42,792 nucleotides of DNA from Anaerolineales bacterium (lineage in GTDB: Bacteria; Chloroflexota; Anaerolineae; Anaerolineales; DRMV01). The notes under the pieces were generated by a model. The model was not told the origin of the DNA, ran no database searches, and worked only from the letters and a program-made list of their open reading frames with translations. Made by a program: the position numbers and the translations under genes. This document shows positions 2,446 to 34,629 of the stretch, piece after piece; positions within the stretch are counted from its first letter, which is position 1, and every line of letters begins with the position of its first letter. The DNA is taken from the NCBI GenBank assembly GCA_026985995.1, contig JALSPJ010000102.1, positions 1 through 42,792 of the forward strand, given 5' to 3'.

Positions 2446-2489
2446 GACAGCACCTCACGAAAAGCCCATGACCGGCCCGTTGTTATCAG

Positions 2490-2563
2490 TGGGCGGGGTG
2501 GGACTCGAACCCACGGCCTCCTCCTTGTAAGGGAGGCGCTCTAACCGGCTGAGCTACCCGCCC
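2490..2563 (-). tRNA. tRNA-Val (anticodon TAC)
   Basis: Reverse complement folds as a cloverleaf. Acceptor GGGCGGG/CCCGCCC, D arm GCTC..GAGC, anticodon stem CCTCC/GGAGG with loop CTTACAA, T arm GTGGG-TTCGAGT-CCCAC, discriminator A. CCA is not encoded. Confidence 0.93.
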
Positions 2564-2704: not shown

Positions 2705-3098
2705 GGGGATGCATGGGTTCGACGGGAGAGCGTGGGTGCCGGATGGCGAGCCGAGGTGCGCGACCTCGTAAAACCCGCGCGAGCACAAGAAGTGCCGTGC
2801 GCACTCCTGTCTCTGCCCTGCCCGTTGCGGCCTAATGCCGCAATAGCGGGGTAGGCTCCCCACAAGGCGGGAGCCCGTCCCCCGGCCCCGAACCCCGACC
2901 GGGGCCGGTGTGGGCGGCACAAAGTCGGGGTGCCGCGCCGGGCTCGCCGCGGCCCGGCGCGTAAGACCAGCGGCGGCCTCGGAGCAGCGCCCTTTGCCGG
3001 TTGTGGGCCTTCCGAGGCGCTGCAAACAACCGGCTACGCTCGTAGAAGTCCGAGCGCCCACTCTTCCGGACGCGGGTTCGATTCCCGCCATCTCCACC
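2705..3098 (+). ncRNA. ssrA: tmRNA (SsrA)
   Basis: 5' GGGGATGCATGGGTTCGACGGG pairs with 3' CATCTCC-A-CC, including a G3:U pair. T arm GCGGG-TTCGATT-CCCGC. An internal tag frame ends ...SALPVAA-TAA (stop at 2833-2835). Confidence 0.9.
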
Positions 3099-3100
3099 TC

Positions 3101-10627: not shown

Positions 10628-13600
10628 TCAGCGAAGCAACTCTTCGGCCTTCATGTAGGTGTCCAAGGCGTCTTGCAGCCGTCCGGCTTTGGCAAACGCG
10701 TCGCCCAGGAGTTGCAGCAGCTCCACGCTCATGGGGTAGTAGTACTGGGCCTGCAGCAGGTCCTCGATGACCTCGGTGAGGTATTTGCGCCGACGCACCA
10801 AGCGGCGGTAGTAACGCAGACCGGTTTCCAGCTCGTAACGGGCGATGGCCTCCCGGGCGCGGCGCAGGTCCTCTAAGTAGGGGTCGGCCTCCACCGGCAA
10901 GGGCTTGAGGGGCATGGTTTCCGGCGGCGGGATGTGTTGTTGCGTGGGCACCCACGCCGGTGGGGTGATGTCCACGGCTTCCTCTTCGTCGCTTTCGGTG
11001 ACCTCCTGGACCCACTCCAAGGCTTCTTGCCCCAAGGGGTGGGTTTCGCGCGCCTGGGCCGGGGCTTCGGCTTCGGTCGTGGGGGCCGGTGCTTCGCCGG
11101 TGGTGGCCCACTCCTGCGGTGGGAGCAGCCACTCGGGGGGTTCTTCCTCCACCTGAGGGCGCTTTCGCGACCCGGCTCCGCGGGGTTGGGCCTCCATCCA
11201 GGCCAGGTTGGCGATGGCGTCTTCCAGCGCCTCGGGGGAGGGCGGTGCCATGTCTTCCTCGGCCTCGGGGCCGGGCGGCGCTTCGGTCTTGCCGGGTTCG
11301 GGTTGGGCCTCGGCCGCGGCTTCGGCCAGCCAGTCGGGCAATTCGCCGGCTGCCGCGGCTTCGGCCTCGGCTTCTGGACGAGGTAGCGCCTCGCCCCTAC
11401 CGGGTTCGGGTTCGGGTTCGGGTTCGGCCGTGGGTTCGGACTGGGCTTCGGCCAGCCACTCGGGGAGTTCCGCGGCCTCCGAGGCTTCGGCCTCGGCCTC
11501 TGGGCGAGGCAGCGCTTCGTCCCTACCGGGTTCGGCTTCGGCCGTGGGTTCGGGTTGGGTTTCGGCCGCGGCGGGCGCTTCCGCGGCTTCGCGGAAGGTT
11601 AGCAGCTCCTCGGTCTTGGCCCCCTGCCGCGCGGCCAGCTGTTCCAGCCAGGCCAAGGCCGCCTCTTCATCGCTCAGGGCTTCCAGGGGAATTTCTGCCT
11701 CGGCCGCGGCTTCGGCTTCGGCCTCTGGGCGAGGCAGCGCCTCGCCCCTACCGGGTTCGGGTTCGGCCGTGGGTTCGGGTCGGGTCTCGGCCGCGGCTTC
11801 GGCCAGCCAGTCGGGGAGTTCCGCGGCCTCCGCGGCTTCGGCCGCGGCCTCCGGGCGAGGCAGCGCTTCGCCCCTACCGGGTTCGGGTTCAGCCGTGGGC
11901 TCGGGTTGGGCTTCGGCCGCGGCTTCGGCCAGCCACTCGGGGAGTTCGCCGGCTTCCACGGCTTCGGCCTCGGCCTCCGGGCGAGGCAACGCTTCGCCCC
12001 TACCGGGTTCGGCTTCGGCCCCGGCGGGTTCAGCCTCGGCCGCGGCTTCGGCCAGCCATTCGGGCAATTCGCCAGCGGCCGCGGGCTCGGCTTCGGCTTC
12101 CGGGCGAGGCAACGCCTCGCCCCTACGGGGTTCGGGTTCGGCTTCGGGGCCGGGCGGCGCTTCGGCCGCGGCGGCTTCTTCCGCGGCTTCGCGGAAGGTC
12201 AGCAGCTCCTCGGTCTTGGCGCCCTGCCGCGCGGCCAGCTGCTCCAGCCAGGCCAAGGCCGCCTCTTCGTCGCTCAGGGCCTCCAGGGGGATTTCTGCCT
12301 CGGCCGCGGCTTCGGCTTCGGCCTCTGGGCGAGGCAACGCCTCGCCCCTACCGGCTTCGGCTTCGGCCGTGGGTTCGGACTGGGCTTCGGCCGCGGCTTC
12401 GGCCAGCCAGTCGGGGAGTTCCGCGGCCTCCGCGGGTTCGGCCTCGGCCTCCGGGCGAGGCAACGCCTCGCCCCTACCGGGCGGCGCTTCTGCCCGGCCT
12501 TCGGCCTCGGCGGGCTCTTCCGCGGCTTCGCGGAAGGTCAGCAGCTCCTCGGTCTTGGCGCCCTGCCGCGCGGCCAGCTGCTCCAGCCAGGCCAAGGCCG
12601 CCTCTTCGTCGCTCAGGGCTTCCAGCGGGATTTCCGCCTCGGCCGCGGCTTCGGCCTCAGCCTCTGGGCGAGGCAGCGCTTCGCCCCTACCGGGTTCGGC
12701 CTCGGCCGTGGGTTCGGGTTGGGTCTCGGCCGCGGCTTCGGCCAGCCAGTCGGGGAGTTCCGCGGCCTCCGCGGCTTCGGCCGCGGCCTCTGGGCGAGGC
12801 AGCGCTTCGTCCCTACCGGGTTCGGGTTCGGCCGTGGGTTCGGGTTGGGTCTCGGCCGCGGCTTCGGCCAGCCAGTCGGGGAGTTCCGCGGCCTCCGCGG
12901 CTTCGGCCTCCGGGCGAAGCGGCGCTTCGCCCCTACCGGGTTCGGCCTCGGCGGGCTCTTCCGCGGCTTCGCGGAAGGTCAGCAGTTCTTCGGTCTTGGC
13001 CCCCTGCCGCGCGGCCAGCTGCTCCAGCCAGGCCAAGGCCGCCTCTTCGTCGCTCAGGGCTTCCAGGGGGATTTCCGCCTCGGCCGCGGGCTCGGCTTCG
13101 GCCTCGGGGCGAGGCAGCGCTTCGCCCCTACCGGGTTCGGGTTCGGCCGTGGGTTCGGGTTGGGCCTCGGCCGCGGCTTCGGCCAGCCAGTCGGGGAATT
13201 CGCCGGCTTCCGCGGGTTCGGCTTCGGCTTCTGGGCGAGGCAACGCCTCGCCCCTACCGGCCGTGGGTTCGGCCTCGGCCCCGGCGGGTGCGGCCTCGGC
13301 TGCGGCTTCGGCCAGCCACTCGGGCAATTCGCCGGCGGCCGCGGCTTCGGCCTCGGTCTCCGGGCGAGGCAACGCCTCGCCCCTACGGGGTTCGGGTTCG
13401 GCTTCGGGGCCGGGCGGTGCTTCGGCCGCGGTGGGTTCTTCCGCGGCTTCGCGGAAGGTCAGCAGTTCTTCGGTCTTGGCCCCTTGCCGCGCGGCCAGCT
13501 GTTCCAGCCAGGCCAAGGCCGCATCTTCGTCGCTCAGGGCTTCCAGGGGGATTTCCGCCTCGGCCGCGGCTTCGGCCTCGGCCTCCGGGCGAGGCAACGC

Positions 13601-16264
13601 CTCGCCCCTACCGGGCGGCGCTTCTGCCCGGCCTTCGGCCGCGGCGGCTTCTTCCGCGGCTTCGCGGAAGGTCAGCAGTTCTTCGGTCTTGGCACCCTGG
13701 CGGGCGGCCAGCTGCTCCAGCCAGGCCAGGGCCGCATCTTCGTCGCTCAGGGCTTCCAGGGGGATTTCTGCCTCGGCCGCGACTTCAGCCTCGGCTTCTG
13801 GGCGAGGCAGCGCTTCGCCCCTACCGGGTTCGGGTTCGGCCGTGGGTTCGGACTGGGCTTCGGCCGCGGCTTCGGCCAGCCACTCGGGGAGTTCACCGGC
13901 TGCCGCGGCTTCGGCTTCGGCCTCTGGGCGAGGCAGCGCTTCGCCCCTACCAGGTTCGGGTTCGGCCGTGGGTTCGGGTCGGGCTTCGGCCGCGGCTTCG
14001 GCCAGCCAGTCGGGCAATTCGCCGGCTTCCACGGCTTCGGCTTCGGCCTCTGGGCGAGGCAGCGCCTCGCCCCTACCGGGTTCGGGTTCGGCTTCGGGGC
14101 CGGGCGGTGCTTCGGCCGCGGTGGGCTCTTCCGCGGCTTCGCGGAAAGTCAGCAGTTCTTCGGTTTTGGCCCCCTGCCGCGCGGCCAGCTGCTCCAGCCA
14201 GGCTAAGGCCGCATCTTCATCGCTCAGGGCTTCCAGGGGGATTTCTGCCTCAGCCGCAGGTTCGGCTTCGGCCTCGGCTTCTGGGCGAGGCAGCGCCTCG
14301 CCCCTACCGGGTTCGGGTTCGGCCGTGGGTTCGGGTTGGGCTTCGGCCGCGGCTTCGGCCAGCCAGTCGGGCAATTCGCCAGCGGCCGCGGCTTCGGCTT
14401 CGGCCTCTGGGCGAGGCAGCGCCTCGCCCCTACCGGCTTCGGCTTCGGCCGTGGGTTCGGACTGGGCTTCAGCCGCGGCTTCAGCCAGCCACTCGGGGAG
14501 TTCGCCGGCTGCCGCGGCTTCGGCCTCCGGGCGAAGCGGCGCTTCGCCCCTACCGGCTTCGGCCTTGGTGGGCTCTTCCGCGGCTTCGCGGAAGGTCAGC
14601 AGCTCCTCGGTCTTGGCACCCTGGCGGGCGGCCAGCTGCTCCAGCCAGGCCAAGGCCGCCTCTTCGTCGCTTAGGGCTTCCAGGGGGATTTCTGCCTCGG
14701 CCGCAGGTTCGGCTTCGGCTTCTGGGCGAGGCAGCGCCTCGCCCCTACGGGGTTCGGGTTCGGCCGTGGGTTCGGACTGGGCTTCGGCCGCGGCTTCGGC
14801 CAGCCACTCGGGCAATTCGCCGGCTTCCGCGGGTTCGGCCTCGGCTTCTGGGCGAGGCAGCGCTTCGCCCCTACGGGGTTCGGGTTCGGCTTCTTCGACC
14901 GCGGCCGCGAGCCAATCGGGGAGCCCGGTTTCTTCCACGGGCGCGGCGGCTTCTTCCATCGGCGTGCTTTCCAGCCAGGTGGCCAGGTCTTCTAACGCGC
15001 TCTCTGCGTCGCCCTCGGGAAGCCAATCCGCGGTCCCCGCGGGCCCCTCTTCGGCTTCTGCCGCAGGCTCGGCCGCGGTTTCCGCTTCGGCCGCGGCTTG
15101 CTGGGCGCGCAGGGCTTGCAGCCACTCGGGAATTTCGCCCTCGACCAGCTCGGCTTCTTCTTCCTCCTCGGCCTCATCCCCGACCGGGGCCTGGGCTGCT
15201 GCGGCGTCTAAGGGAACGGACGGGTCGCGCGGCGCCCAGCCGCTCTTCTGCATCCACTCGGGGATGAGCTCCTCGGCCTGCTCGGGAGGAACATAAGGGC
15301 CACTCTCGGCCGATGTTTCCTCGGCCTCGGCCGTTTCTACCGCCTCGCTGAGGGCGAAAATTTCGTCCTCGGGTGGGCCGGTGTCCTCTTCCTCGTCCAG
15401 CAGGCCCGTTTGCCGGGCCACGGCTTCCAGTTCCTCCAGCATGGGCATTTCGGCCTCGTCGGGCGCGGGCAGGGCATCTAAGTCGCTGGTGAACTCCATC
15501 TCCAGCCGCGGGATGCGCACCTTTTCGGCCGGAACCTGCTCCGCGGTGGGGAATTCGTTGCCGACGAAGGCCTCGTAGGGGTCCAGCTCCAACACCCGGG
15601 ACCAGTATTGCTGGGCTTCTTCCTCCCGGCCCTGACGCCGCAGGATGGCGGCCATGATGCGGTTGGCCTGCAGACAGTAGGGCAGTTTTTGCAGCAGGCG
15701 CTGGGCTGTGTCGATGGCTCGCGCCCATTGCTGGGCCTCGAAGTACGCCTGGGCCAGCAGGGCCTGGGCGTCCAGGCGGCGCGGGTCTTGCTGCAGCACG
15801 GCCTGCAATTCGATGATGCTTTGGTTGTACAGTCCACTTTGCAGATAGACGCGCGCCAGAGCCACCCGGGTGAAACGAATACGCGGCGGGGCAACGCCAT
15901 CCCGCTCCCGATACAGGCGGCGCAGTTCCTCCTGGATGGCGACATGGGTGGGCTGGGCCTCGAACGCGCGCTCCATGTGCCAGATGGCCGCGTCCAGGTT
16001 GCCCTCTTCTTCGCGGATGGTGGCCATGCCGAAATGGGCCAAAAAATCGTCGGGCACAGCCGACAGCACCCGTTGGAAGAGGTCCGCGGCCTCGGGAAAA
16101 CGCCGGTTGCTGAGGTAGATTTCCCCCAGCACCCGATAGACAGGCAGATATTTGGGGTAATGGCGCAGGATGTGCCGGGCGTGCAGAATCGCCTCTTCGT
16201 AGCGCTCGTCCTGCACCATTTCTACAATTTGTTGCAGATAAGTGCGCAAACCGATTTCGTTCAT
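10628..16264 (-). CDS. Giant (1878 aa) TPR-flanked, highly acidic modular repeat protein
   Basis: N-terminal TPR region (about 290 aa) and a C-terminal TPR-like region are joined in one frame by an Ala/Glu/Pro-rich array. The ATG at 16264 begins [14 protein letters not shown]; the track ORF starts 29 codons upstream. Confidence 0.85.
11290..14893 (-). repeat. In-frame tandem array: 23 H modules ([14 protein letters not shown]) followed by 15 W units (ELP[ED][17 protein letters not shown]) or 8 B units ([11 protein letters not shown][ED][29 protein letters not shown])
   Basis: Counted by hand on the DNA. Each H module contains the 21-nt palindrome GGGCGAGGC-nnn-GCCTCGCCC (example 11727-11747). 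First copy at 11376-11396, last at 14850-14870. Units are near-identical at DNA level. Confidence 0.9.
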
Positions 16265-16308
16265 GGTCGTGCCTCGCCGCGCGCCGAAATGCGGGTGAAC
16301 CTGGCAAT

Positions 16309-16337
16309 AGTATATCAACAATCCACAACCTTGTCCA
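16309..16337 (-). promoter_or_regulatory. Putative sigma-70-type promoter of the giant gene (TGGACA-17-TATACT)
   Basis: On the minus strand the -35 TGGACA is at 16337-16332, followed by a 17-nt spacer and the -10 TATACT at 16314-16309. This lies about 45 nt upstream of the ATG. Confidence 0.5.
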
Positions 16338-16369
16338 TGACCCGCGACCATATAAGAGGAAGTCGCGGC

Positions 16370-25395: not shown

Positions 25396-25460
25396 GGTAG
25401 TTGGTAGTTGGTAGTTGGTAGTTGGTGGTTGGTGGTTGGTGGGTTGTGGTTGGTGGGTGG
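25396..25460 (+). repeat. Heptad tandem repeat GGTAGTT x4 degrading to GGTGGTT/GGTGGGT
   Basis: Directly visible: ggtagttggtagttggtagttggtagttggtggttggtggttggtgggttgtggttggtgggtgg. Confidence 0.9.
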
Positions 25461-25584
25461 CGGGGTCGCGCTTTTTGAACCGGCGCGCGTGCCGCTTTGG
25501 TTCCCAGAGCCCTGGGGCCAGGGCTCGCGTGCATCGGGGTGCGGCGCATGAAAGCGCCGTCGGCTCGCCGCATTCCAAAAGGCG

Positions 25585-25975
25585 CCCTGCTCCCCGCTGA
25601 CCGCTGACTGCTGCTTTTCATCCGCGGCTTCATCCCCCTGGCGCACCGCCGTGCGTTTGGGTGCCTTGCCGTGCGCCCCACCGTTTCCCGCTTTTTTTCT
25701 GTGTTCATCCGCGTTTTTCTGTGTTTTTTCATCGTATCCGCGTATATCCGCGTTTATCCGCGGCTTCATCCTCCGCGGTTTCATCCTCGGGTCGCTCCCA
25801 CCGCGCTGGGCGCACCGCCGTGCGCCCCTACCGCGCTCCCTGCTCACCGCTGACTGCTGACCGCTGTTTTTCTTCCGTGTCCATACGAGCTCGTCCGTGG
25901 TTTTCTCATTATCCGCGTTTATCCGCGGTTTCATCTTCATCCTGCATCCGTGTGCATCGCCGCGGTTTCCTTTCC
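25585..25975. repeat. Complex block of modular non-coding repeats
   Basis: Modules are ATCCGCG-type cores, CCGCTGACY 9-mers and the GGCGCAC-cgcc-GTGCGCC hairpin. At least 7 ATCCGCG cores are visible. atccgcggYttcatcc occurs at 25620, 25756, 25772 (without the leading a) and 25921. ggcgcaccgccgtgcg occurs at 25641 and 25809. ccgctgac repeats occur at 25594 and 25846. No credible ORF. Confidence 0.8.
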
Positions 25976-25990
25976 ACCAGGGAAGGGGGG

Positions 25991-28036: not shown

Positions 28037-28372
28037 GGGGCTCTCCCTGCGGGGTGGGGCGGGGCTATCGAAAAAGCCCCGAGCAGGCACCCCGACGGCA
28101 CCCGGAGACACCACCTTAGGGCTGCTTCCTCTCGGACCTGACCCGGTTCGGTGGGCTCCGCCGCGTCGGACCCACTCGGGGCGCCTCTAACTATACCCAA
28201 AAACCCGGCCCGCGTCAACGGCCGAGCAACACGGCCCCGGGGCTTTTTAACGCCCACGGCCTCCACAACGCCGATTCACACATCGTCCTCCTTGGGCGGT
28301 TACGCGAGCTTTGGTAACATTTCAAGCAACGGCGCGCCAGGAGCGGGACGGCAGACAACCCAGGAGACGACG

Positions 28373-32439: not shown

Positions 32440-32513
<74 letters not shown>

Positions 32514-32586: not shown

Positions 32587-34629
32587 ATGGCCAAAAGCAG
32601 CGAAGTCTTGCTGGCTTTCAACGAACTCACCCAAACTCGCGAACTGCCCCCCGAACGCATCCTCGACGCGCTCCGGGACGCGCTCATCGCGGCCTATCGC
32701 AAGGTGCACAACGCGCCCGCCTCCCAACAAGTCGAGGTGGAATTCGACCTGCCCAACGGGCGCATCACCCTGCTGGTGGAAAAAGAAGTGGTGGACGAAG
32801 TGCGCGACCCGCGCACCGAAATCTCCCTTGAGCAGGCGCGCCGCTTTCGCCCCGATGCCCAGGTGGGCGACATCGTCATGGTGCCCATGGACCCGTCCAC
32901 CTTTGGGCGCATCGCCGCGCAGGTCAGCCGCCAGGTCATCAAACAGCGCCTGCAAGACGCCGAGCGGCAAATGCAATATGAATACTACAGCCAGCTCAAG
33001 GGCGAAATCGTCCACGGCATCGTGCAGGCCATCAACGCCCACGAAGTGGTGGTCGGGCTCGACAAGCGCGCCGAAGGGCACCTGCTCAAAAAGGAACAAA
33101 TCCCCGGCGAGCGTTTTCAGGTGCACGACCGGGTGCGGGCCCTGCTTTTGGATGTGGAAAAGACCACCCGCGGGCCCTACATCATCCTCTCCCGCGCGCA
33201 TCCCAACTTCCTGCGGCGCTTGCTGGAGGAAGAAGTACCCGAAATCCACCGGGGGGAAGTGGAAATTCGCGCCGTGGCCCGAGAAGCCGGTCGGCGCTCC
33301 AAAGTGGCCGTGTCGGCCATCGCGCCCAACATCGACCCCGTGGGCGCGTGCGTGGGCATTCGCGGCTCCCGCATCCAAACCATCATGCGCGAGCTGCACA
33401 ACGAGAAAATCGATGTCATCCAGTGGGACCCCAACCCCGCGGTGTTCATCGCCAAGGCCCTGAGCCCGGCCCGGGTGCTGGGCGTTTACCTGCAGGAAGG
33501 GGAAGGGCCCCGCACCGCGGTGGTGGTGGTGCCCGAAGACCAGCTCAGCCTGGCCATTGGTCGGGAAGGGCAAAATGTGCGCCTGGCGGCCAAACTCACC
33601 CGCTGGCGCATCGACATCAAGAGCCTCAGCGAAGCAGCCCAGGACGCGCTGAGCAAACTGTATCGGGACGAGGCCTTCGCCCCCCTGCTGGAGGCCGAAC
33701 ACGACACCCTGGAGCAGGTGGAGGCCATCTTAGAGAAGAAACAGGCCGGCCGGCCCCTGACCCCCGAGGAATACAACTTCCTCTTCCAGTTCGTGGACCG
33801 GGTGGAGCGGGGCATGTTGGCCGAGCTGCGGGCCCGCCGGGAAGCCGAAGTCGCGGCCCTGGCCGAGCTGCGCCGCGGCATTCCCGAGGCCGCGTTCGAA
33901 ACGCCCCTGGACGAGCTGGGCCTCTCCCCGCGGCTCATCATCAGCCTTACCGAAGCCGGCTACCACAGCGTGGGCGACCTCATCATGGCCCTGCGGCAGG
34001 ACCCGGACGCCATTCTGGCCCTGCAAGGCGTGGGGCCGCGCACCATGGAAGCCCTGCAGCAGGCGGTGGAAGCCTACCTGGCCGAGCATGCGGCCGAAAT
34101 CGAAGCCGAAGCCGCGGCCGAGGCCGAGGAAGAAGCCGCGCCGGGCCCCGAAGAGACCGAAGCCGCAGCCGAACCCCAGGCCGAAGCGCCCCAGGCCGTG
34201 GAAGCCACCGCAGCCGAGCCGGTCTCGGGCGAAGCCCTTCCCCCTGACGAAGCCCCCGAGGCCGAACCCGAGGCCGTGCCCGTGCCCGAGCCCAGCGTGG
34301 CGGACCTCATCGTGGCCGAAGCCGAGCCTTTGCCCCCGGCCCCCGAGGCCGAAGCCGAACCCGAACCCCGGAGGGGCGAAGCGTTGCCTCGCCCAGAAGC
34401 CGAGGCCGAAGCGCCTTCCCTGGAAGAGCTCTTCTCCACCGAGCGGGTGCTGGGCACGCCCGAAAGCGCGCTGCTGACCGAAGCCGACGAGGAAGAAGAG
34501 GCCGCGGAGCCCGAGCCGCCCAAGAAGAAGAAAAAGAAGAAGCGCAAGAAGCGCGGCCCCCGCTACCGCGACCTGGAAGACGACGACGAGTACTTCGGGG
34601 GCCGACGCCGCGGCGATTGGGATTGGTAA
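32587..34629 (+). CDS. nusA: Transcription termination/antitermination factor NusA with a long acidic C-terminal extension
   Basis: NusA N-terminal domain, S1 (GEIVHGIVQ), KH1/KH2 (EIRAVAREAGRRSKVAV...GACVGIRGSRIQ...LAIGREGQNVRLA), a helix-hairpin-helix region, and then a roughly 180-aa Ala/Glu/Pro tail ending KKKKKKKRKKRG...RRRGDWDW. Confidence 0.93.
   Translation: MAKSSEVLLAFNELTQTRELPPERILDALRDALIAAYRKVHNAPASQQVEVEFDLPNGRITLLVEKEVVDEVRDPRTEISLEQARRFRPDAQVGDIVMVPMDPSTFGRIAAQVSRQVIKQRLQDAERQMQYEYYSQLKGEIVHGIVQAINAHEVVVGLDKRAEGHLLKKEQIPGERFQVHDRVRALLLDVEKTTRGPYIILSRAHPNFLRRLLEEEVPEIHRGEVEIRAVAREAGRRSKVAVSAIAPNIDPVGACVGIRGSRIQTIMRELHNEKIDVIQWDPNPAVFIAKALSPARVLGVYLQEGEGPRTAVVVVPEDQLSLAIGREGQNVRLAAKLTRWRIDIKSLSEAAQDALSKLYRDEAFAPLLEAEHDTLEQVEAILEKKQAGRPLTPEEYNFLFQFVDRVERGMLAELRARREAEVAALAELRRGIPEAAFETPLDELGLSPRLIISLTEAGYHSVGDLIMALRQDPDAILALQGVGPRTMEALQQAVEAYLAEHAAEIEAEAAAEAEEEAAPGPEETEAAAEPQAEAPQAVEATAAEPVSGEALPPDEAPEAEPEAVPVPEPSVADLIVAEAEPLPPAPEAEAEPEPRRGEALPRPEAEAEAPSLEELFSTERVLGTPESALLTEADEEEEAAEPEPPKKKKKKKRKKRGPRYRDLEDDDEYFGGRRRGDWDW
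34351..34410 (+). repeat. In-frame copy of the H module of the giant-gene array inside the nusA tail
   Basis: 58/60 nt identical to the reverse complement of 14834-14893. Encodes [20 protein letters not shown] in both genes. Palindrome at 34374-34394. Confidence 0.9.

Follow-up and report, generated by a model that had tools for sequence, protein, structure and literature searches.

Introduction

The defining features of GTAG repetitive extragenic palindromes (REPs) and of REPtrons are well described (Nunvar et al. 2010, PMC2817692; Di Nocera et al. 2013, PMC3733652), as are the transposases associated with them, the REP-associated tyrosine transposases (RAYTs, or TnpA-REP; Ton-Hoang/Messing 2012, PMC3479197). 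Many proteins decorated with REP sequences have been reported, including those of Roseiflexus, where GTAG-23 elements occur singly and in clusters encoding 43-82 amino acids; such intragenic REPs add 8-30 residues per element, often to proteins engaged in DNA or RNA transactions (PMC3733652). Here, we analyze a 42,792-nt stretch of DNA of an Anaerolineales bacterium of the Chloroflexota (assembly GCA_026985995.1, contig JALSPJ010000102.1; hereafter the window), in which a 21-nt palindrome occurs 23 times within one protein gene and once more in nusA. We suggest, with a probability of roughly 0.72, that a disordered acidic spacer of a gene encoding tetratricopeptide (TPR) and "PDWL" repeats took up a GTAG-tagged REP in frame, which was then co-amplified by tandem duplication.

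The locus can be set beside several described systems. REP clusters and bacterial interspersed mosaic elements (BIMEs) likewise involve the tandem amplification of a REP together with its flanking DNA, but they are intergenic (PMC3733652), whereas the flanks of the present REPs are in-frame coding sequence. With the intragenic REPs of Di Nocera et al. it shares the in-frame reading, and the copies in NusA and in a UvrD/PcrA-like helicase of Pelobacter fit that pattern; it differs in having 23 copies in one ORF (open reading frame), each within a 40-77-residue module with conserved protein motifs, and in that these copies appear to have arisen by duplication of the module rather than by repeated insertion. 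The likeness to the GTAG REP/RAYT system extends to a GC-rich palindrome of 21-29 nt, a 5' GTAG, covariation in the stem, dimers with a second hairpin and, in other genomes, dispersed copies and the presence of the same REPs on the flanks of RAYT genes. In contrast to that system, the array and nusA copies all lie in ORFs, run head-to-tail (an arrangement reported to be rare for REP dimers) and lack a 3' CTAC, and the sequence type spans many non-proteobacterial phyla.

The palindromic elements of Rickettsia (RPEs) are also relevant; according to Ogata et al. in 2000, protein genes reportedly carry them as in-frame insertions. RPEs are about 100-150 bp long and specific to Rickettsia, and we know of no instance in which they form the units of a tandem coding array. 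An earlier interpretation made from the letters of this DNA without database searches (the sequence-only reading) had named RPEs as the nearest precedent. The parallel is apt for the in-frame reading and, more generally, for a selfish palindromic repeat that is tolerated in frame and creates lineage-specific peptide segments; but the element described here is only 25 nt long, belongs to the Chloroflexota, is unrelated in sequence and forms a tandem coding array, and hence it is not an RPE. In-frame REPs and RPEs are already known; what is unusual in this case is that 23 head-to-tail copies are integral to a higher-order coding repeat and that a further, strain-polymorphic copy resides in an essential gene.

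A tandem array of translated palindromes

The palindrome consists of a 9-bp stem and a 3-nt loop. The exact IUPAC pattern GGGCGARGC-NNN-GCYTCGCCC (also written GTAGGGGCGARGC-N3-GCYTCGCCC) matched the window 20 times at 11727-14870 and once at 34374, and it had no match in 100 dinucleotide shuffles; when up to three mismatches were tolerated, all 23 copies of the array were recovered, with palindromes at 11376-14870 (Table 1). Elsewhere in the window (about 39 kb outside the array), just two further perfect hairpins with a 9-bp stem and a 3-5-nt loop were present. Both the number of copies and the tally given by the sequence-only reading were reproduced: 13 copies are perfect (11 GAGGC/GCCTC and two GAAGC/GCTTC), seven have one mismatch, a single G:T pair, two are GRDE variants with two mismatches and one is degenerate. 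Its assertion that every imperfection is a GAG-to-GAA or GGC-to-GAC change in the same arm does not extend to the copy at 11376, which carries its changes (CTA, CGT) in the other arm.

On the coding strand a GTAG tag lies directly 5' of the palindrome in 23/23 array copies, and all 23 are translated in a single frame of the minus-strand ORF as GGT/CGT AGG GGC GAR GCG YTG CCT CGC CCN, giving (G/R)RGEALPRP. This peptide is identical in 19/23 copies, the changes being mostly synonymous. The earlier assignment of RGEALPRP to the minus strand thus stands, with one frame for all copies, except for the two GAAGC/GCTTC copies; in these, both arms have changed in compensation and the loop has changed as well, such that the peptide is GEAPLRP and the stem is intact. 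Successive REPs are separated by 120-129 nt in short modules and by 195-231 nt in long ones, and the array units are 85-91% identical, with higher-order periods of 126, 339, 441 and 483 nt.

Codon usage argues for a non-coding origin of the REP segments. Among the 4235 codons of the reference genes of the window, AGG accounts for 1.0% of Arg, CCT for 5.5% and CCA for 3% of Pro, and GGT for 9% of Gly codons. In the REP segments, AGG is used in 23/23, CCT in 21/23 and GGT in 19/23 cases; the corresponding values in the array outside these segments are 0/20 for AGG and 3/110 for CCT (Fisher p = 1e-34 and 1e-20, respectively, for copies that are not independent). Given the peptide, the probability of the observed string of codons under local codon usage is about 1.6e-6. 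Five of the six reading frames of this REP are open.

Other identities were considered for the repeat and rejected. In a CRISPR array the "spacers" would not be mutually homologous, fall into two length classes and lie within one long ORF, as they do here. Intrinsic terminators would have a T run, which is absent; what comes after the hairpins is AGAR/GGAR on the coding strand and CTACC on the plus strand. A tRNA-Arg(TCG) that ARAGORN placed over a palindrome inside the ORF (12866-12958, plus strand) has no support from the Rfam tRNA model and is almost certainly spurious.

REPs of the same type in other genomes

The 22-nt core GGGGCGARGCGYYGCYTCGCCC was used to scan GTDB, with one genome per species, and was found in at least 120 stretches; 127 sites were listed, and the fractions given here for free REPs refer to these. 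They come from Anaerolineae, Chloroflexus, Thermomicrobium, Acidobacteriota, Nitrospirota, Desulfuromonadales, Planctomycetota, Armatimonadota and Gemmatimonadales, with GC contents of 39-73%, and frequently several contigs of one genome were matched. Their context is mostly non-coding and their flanks are unrelated, the frame corresponding to GEALPRP having a median open length of 69 codons. A GTA directly 5' completes the GTAG tag in 88/127 sites; in 27/127 a 3' CTAC extends the element to a 29-nt perfect palindrome, GTAGGGGCGAGGC-NNN-GCCTCGCCCCTAC; and in 22/127 a second hairpin, GGGCGACCC-NNN-GGGTCGCCCCTAC, follows, which makes a REP dimer. The two positions that the pattern leaves degenerate are complementary in 121/127 sites (91 G:C and 30 A:T), and eight of the 127 have the same GAAGC-type sequence as the compensated copies of the array. 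In a Thermomicrobium metagenome-assembled genome (MAG) with four REPs (L022), TRF detected no tandem unit; these are clustered separate insertions instead.

Searches by tblastn, with E. coli RayT and then the recovered RAYTs themselves as queries, revealed RAYT genes directly adjoining the REP in Leptolinea (L005), Anaerolinea (L075), Terriglobia (L011) and two further loci (L089, L100); L003 and L015 contain RAYTs of a second type. In L005, L011 and L075 the gene is bracketed on both sides by GTAGGGGCGA... REPs. The RAYT ORFs match Pfam Y1_Tnp at 22-28 bits; among NCBIfam models they fit REP_Tyr_transpos best (E 1e-18 to 1e-21; 67-75 bits, the equivalog cut-off being 80), in a match split by an insertion. 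Several of these ORFs (L005 5653-6309, L075 6584-7186, L011 5497-6234 and L100 2374-2997) hold in-frame segments derived from REPs, which occupy the variable loop that separates the HUH motif (MP[DN]H[VL]HG) from a conserved GSIGAIVGQFKS block. The REP types in this loop differ between genomes, and the transposase gene seems to have received insertions of its own REPs time and again at this one place.

In a Pelobacter MAG, an ORF for a UvrD/PcrA-like helicase (L069 1865-4249) likewise contains a REP of the array's type whose in-frame translation is RGEALPRP. There it forms an in-frame dimer of 20 residues in the linker before the C-terminal domain, a case that matches the reported bias of intragenic REPs toward repair and replication genes. 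No Rfam family covers the element in the window or in eight REP loci; a full-text sequence search for the palindrome returned chance matches only (primers and the like), and a metagenome scan for the REP in coding context (CCSGKAGGGGCGARGCGYYGCYTCGCCCRGARGCC) gave no match.

In the source genome, intergenic sister REPs (GGTAGGGGCGACCC..., GGTAGGGGCGCAYGG...) share a GGTAGGGGCG head with the array REP. Across about 75 kb of the source lineage, sister types (GACCC, GCRCAYGG) occupy intergenic DNA and the GAGGC type occurs solely in two ORFs. Elements similar to the intergenic REP at 25800-25831 occur at L137 2731/2761 and L129 303, and a tandem pair of sister REPs lies 6 kb beyond the REP that is cut by the window's end. 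Around these elements lies composite repetitive DNA, intergenic and about 300-600 nt long (window 25400-25990 and 1-120; L137 8440-8740), which is unusually A/T-rich for a genome of 69% GC. It is built of TGGTAGT/TGGTGGT heptad runs and recurring TATCCGCGTTTATCCGCGG(C/T)TTCATCC motifs, together with GTAG REPs and a CAGGGAGCSCG box. Short-read contigs from sister strains and the contig of the window end within such composite-repeat regions.

The host gene and its orthologues

The gene that carries the array probably starts at the ATG near 16267 (MNEIGL...). Its product has a TPR domain (Pfam TPR) at the N-terminus and a TPR-like one at the C-terminus, separated by a long repeat region that is acidic and disordered; this region contains the motif (E)LP(D/E)WL and a 14-residue motif. 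Homologues of the N-terminal domain are TPR proteins of the Chloroflexota/Anaerolineales with at most 54% identity, mostly truncated in the linker, and repeated xPDWL motifs are found in their linkers. A positional orthologue (L127), which like the host gene has ndk immediately downstream, shares the same N- and C-termini and has some 20 xPDWL motifs and three MAWLESLAAKQGA modules. Neither GRGEALPRP nor the GTAGGGG/CCCCTAC tag is present in this orthologue, nor is its palindrome, and GRGEALPRP was found in 0/120 homologues. The two real protein motifs of the array are thus ancestral, and the REP-encoded nonapeptide was added to the intervening spacer in this lineage. A protein search with a 151-residue super-module of the array had no match at E <= 0.001, the query being of low complexity.

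These results strongly support one of the explanations that the sequence-only reading had offered, namely that the hairpin is the footprint of a mobile palindromic element: the 25-nt unit of GTAG and palindrome matches a RAYT-associated REP type that is dispersed among many phyla, and the palindrome and its peptide are missing from the orthologues.

Strains that share about 99.7% identity differ in the structure of the array (L134, identity measured in the unique 3' region). At the array edge of this sister strain (L134 1-30), a perfect GAAGC-GTT-GCTTC REP encoding GEALLRP is joined directly to EAEEDMAPP, and at the array edge the window has, relative to L134, an extra 36-residue stretch at about 11150-11400.

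A recent copy in nusA

The twenty-fourth copy is part of an array-like block in the disordered C-terminal linker of NusA. The block is about 94% identical to array modules, with 22 identical nt upstream of the palindrome, the palindrome itself and about 18 nt downstream; elsewhere in the window the 15-22-mers that flank this palindrome are found in array modules only. As read from the sequence, an 11-nt direct repeat, GAGGCCGAAGC, brackets the block. Relatives of NusA with 72-91% identity in the core keep the anchors ADLIVAEAEPLP and LEELFSAER; their linkers are unrelated and the peptide is absent. The block is missing from relatives P0122-P0132 and identical in P0121 and P0243 (the latter being the window's own protein), both of the same 90% cluster. 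At 97.4% nucleotide identity, L129 has in place of the block a different patch of 45 nt encoding VAAGAAEGEAAPQPEA, and at 92.3% L130 lacks the block and is 26 nt shorter at this position. The block, a patch with coding flanks, thus entered nusA very recently, and we infer that it did so by ectopic conversion from the array, not by an independent transposition of the REP. Upstream of nusA, synteny is broken in a relative of 89% identity (L124).

The C-terminus of NusA (34527-34629) has a conserved poly-Lys tract (KKKKKKKRKKRG) and then an acidic and aromatic tail that ends in DWDW/DWEDW. This tail lies after an acidic disordered linker of about 150 residues and constitutes an unusual C-terminal extension kept across relatives.

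Conservation of the hairpin

The sequence-only reading regarded the hairpin as maintained 23 times. At first view the palindrome is indeed the better conserved, differing from the consensus at 26/483 positions as opposed to 236/1449 in the flanks. However, homology between module types does not extend to the distal flanks, the near flanks (EPEP, PEAEAE) show no less conservation than the palindrome, and 11 of the 26 differences fall at the third position of GAR, where the flanking GAR codons are equally variable (7-11 of 23); the comparison of palindrome and flanks therefore does not discriminate. The other synonymous sites of the stem are invariant, and the same is true of flanking GCC codons. 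At the R:Y pair, an A·C mismatch on the GTAG strand is present in 9/23 array copies, the remaining 14 being complementary, against 2/127 free REPs. Since the array units are recent tandem copies, shared ancestry explains most of the palindrome's conservation, and the notion of a maintained hairpin is not supported. Folding on both strands, a proposal of the sequence-only reading, showed that perfect copies form the hairpin on either strand, and that GAA copies pair less well or not at all on the sense strand but stay paired, via G·U, on the plus strand. In-context z-scores ranged from -2.1 to +0.1, and there is no positive evidence that selection on mRNA structure maintains the hairpin.

Two peptide-changing variants both restore Watson-Crick pairing: GAA...CTT in GEAPLRP, found in two copies that represent one event, and the GEALLRP variant of L134. 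Both equal natural REP sequence types. They would result from hairpin-templated (quasipalindrome) correction or from conversion by another REP, in either case a DNA-level process, and they suggest that the DNA hairpin sometimes forms. Quasipalindrome correction proceeds by intramolecular template switching, as is known from the work of Ripley and of the Lovett laboratory. The two variants resemble it in that a change of CCT to CTT opposite GAA restores pairing at the cost of replacing Pro by Leu; alternatively, they may stem from conversion by a different REP with GAAGC/GCTTC arms.

How the array may have arisen

The history that we favor would begin with a REP, one of a class of small non-autonomous elements tied to RAYT/TnpA-REP tyrosine (Y1/HUH) transposases, of which one copy would have joined the reading frame of a disordered Glu/Ala/Pro-rich spacer. 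The module that bore it would then have multiplied by tandem duplication, unequal recombination and concerted evolution until 23 head-to-tail copies were present, the palindrome being "kept" mainly through recent common descent. A piece of a module of about 50-63 nt, REP included, would have been copied into the NusA linker, probably by ectopic conversion at GAR/GCC microhomology. The stem would decay slowly at GAR, its one synonymous stem site, with occasional templated repair, and tolerance by disordered linkers is the probable reason why the REP persists.

Several observations weigh against this history. A 3' CTAC, present in many free copies, is missing from those of the array. In the 75 kb of the source lineage neither a RAYT gene nor an extragenic copy of the exact GAGGC type was found, and activity of a GAGGC-type REP in the source genome is therefore no more than putative. 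The 127 GTDB sites are a lower bound, and neither the total copy number nor the chance expectation is directly computable from the listed matches. In addition, the T's of the rare codons GGT (in the tag) and CCT (in the stem) have never changed to the preferred C in any of the 23 copies; this could reflect a constraint on the REP sequence, in place of a pure passenger, or simply too few independent mutational events.

The sequence-only reading had also raised the possibility that the hairpin itself drives the amplification. In its broader form, this explanation holds that REP stem-loops, by stalling replication and promoting slippage, by extruding cruciforms or through the action of RAYTs, seed coding repeat arrays, continually remodel them and pass REP-bearing patches on to the disordered linkers of further genes, essential ones like nusA among them. 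We consider it unlikely, though several observations favor it: clusters of REPs typically consist of tandem reiterations that include the DNA beside them (PMC3733652), such tandem duplicates of REP and flank exist in L051 and L112, the array differs in structure in a strain as close as L134, the NusA patch is very recent and the stem-restoring, peptide-changing variants exist. Yet the linker of the L127 orthologue is highly repetitive and has the same motifs without any REP, which shows that the gene is repeat-prone by itself and, therefore, that expansion does not require an active role of the hairpin. Furthermore, the homology encompasses whole modules of 126-231 nt, as ordinary unequal recombination predicts; the 22 and 18 nt of coding sequence beside the NusA palindrome are conversion-like and unlike REP transposition; and the fact that no RAYT gene was found in the 75 kb of the lineage tells against this explanation as well.

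Two other explanations place the cause in the gene's products. A structure selected in either the mRNA or an antisense RNA, which might for example pause ribosomes between modules, protect against RNase or serve in regulation, would accord with the hairpin that perfect copies form on both strands, with the G·U pairing by which GAA copies still fold on the antisense strand and with the invariant rare-codon T's of tag and stem. It is nonetheless improbable, as the A·C mismatch in the mRNA is so much commoner in the array than in free REPs, the z-scores are modest, no Rfam family applies and GAR varies equally inside and outside the stem; an RNA function, which the sequence-only reading had likewise entertained, thus found no support. 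Still harder to credit is the idea that GRGEALPRP is a functional short linear motif, with the palindrome an accidental by-product of its codons. The near-uniform peptide, with its mostly synonymous changes, and its recurrence in NusA are what such a motif would produce, but the codon string is far too improbable for that peptide, the nucleotide sequence including GTAG equals that of a non-coding REP of many phyla, the orthologues and the relatives of NusA do without the peptide, and GEAPLRP and GEALLRP preserve the stem, not the peptide. Capture of a REP followed by its co-amplification with the module accordingly remains the explanation that we prefer.

Table 1. Coordinates of the REP copies, of the genes that contain them and of other features of the window. 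The extent of an array REP is from the palindrome start to start+24.
Feature	Coordinates	Strand	Remarks
Host TPR/"PDWL"-repeat gene	10628-16351	-	1907 aa; ORF and translation
Tandem array of 23 REP-bearing coding modules	11376-14874	-	REPs head-to-tail, one frame
REP copy 1 in coding order	14850-14874	-	GTAG + GGGCGAAGC-GCT-GCCTCGCCC; A·C on coding strand; encodes RRGEALPRP
REP, perfect GAGGC/GCCTC	14724-14748	-	
Further perfect GAGGC/GCCTC palindromes (starts, + coordinates)	14409, 14283, 14052, 13587, 13362, 13233, 12453, 12327, 12102, 11727	-	
Compensated perfect REPs, GAAGC-GCC-GCTTC	14529-14553; 12912-12936	-	Peptide GEAPLRP
REPs with GAA opposite CCT	13926-13950; also starts 14850, 13800, 13107, 12666, 11979, 11853	-	A·C on coding strand, G·T on plus strand
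GRDE variants (GAC GAA)	12792-12816; 11502-11526	-	Two mismatches
Terminal REP copy	11376-11400	-	Most degenerate (CTA, CGT)
nusA	32587-34629	+	
Array-like block in NusA disordered C-terminal linker	34349-34412	+	~63 nt; palindrome 34374-34394, tag mutated to GGAG; encodes 21 residues
GTAG-tagged sister REP, intergenic	25800-25831	-	GGTAGGGGCGCACGGCGGTGCGCCC; inside ~600-nt composite repeat region
Intergenic REP cut by contig end	1-61	-	Complete in L137 as GGTAGGGGCGACCCGGCGGGTCGCCCC
tRNA-Val	2489-2563		
tmRNA	2705-3099		Tag peptide ARAQEVPCALLSLPCPLRPNAAIAG (ARAGORN, atypical)
SRP RNA gene	28078-28177		
tRNA-Met	32440-32513		Just upstream of nusA
RtcB RNA ligase gene with intein	~42242 to end		Pfam Intein_splicing between two RtcB halves; beside archease; L121 10335-13106

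Implications

The presence of a hairpin 23 times over in one gene is best explained by a selfish REP that was translated and then hitch-hiked on the expansion of a coding repeat. Domestication of in-frame elements of the REP or RPE kind is thereby extended to the Chloroflexota, and on an exceptionally large scale, as about 200 residues of one protein are REP-encoded. For annotation there is a warning, as peptides like VGATRRVAPT and one of 17 residues in predicted proteins are translated REPs. Should the unlikely alternative hold, in which the hairpins themselves seed and remodel the arrays, REPs would be a strain-level generator of diversity in the protein linkers of the Chloroflexota. The NusA patch, polymorphic among strains about 97% identical, offers a tractable natural system in which to study the uptake of mobile DNA by disordered linkers and a possible mutational bias at DNA hairpins inside genes, through quasipalindrome correction.

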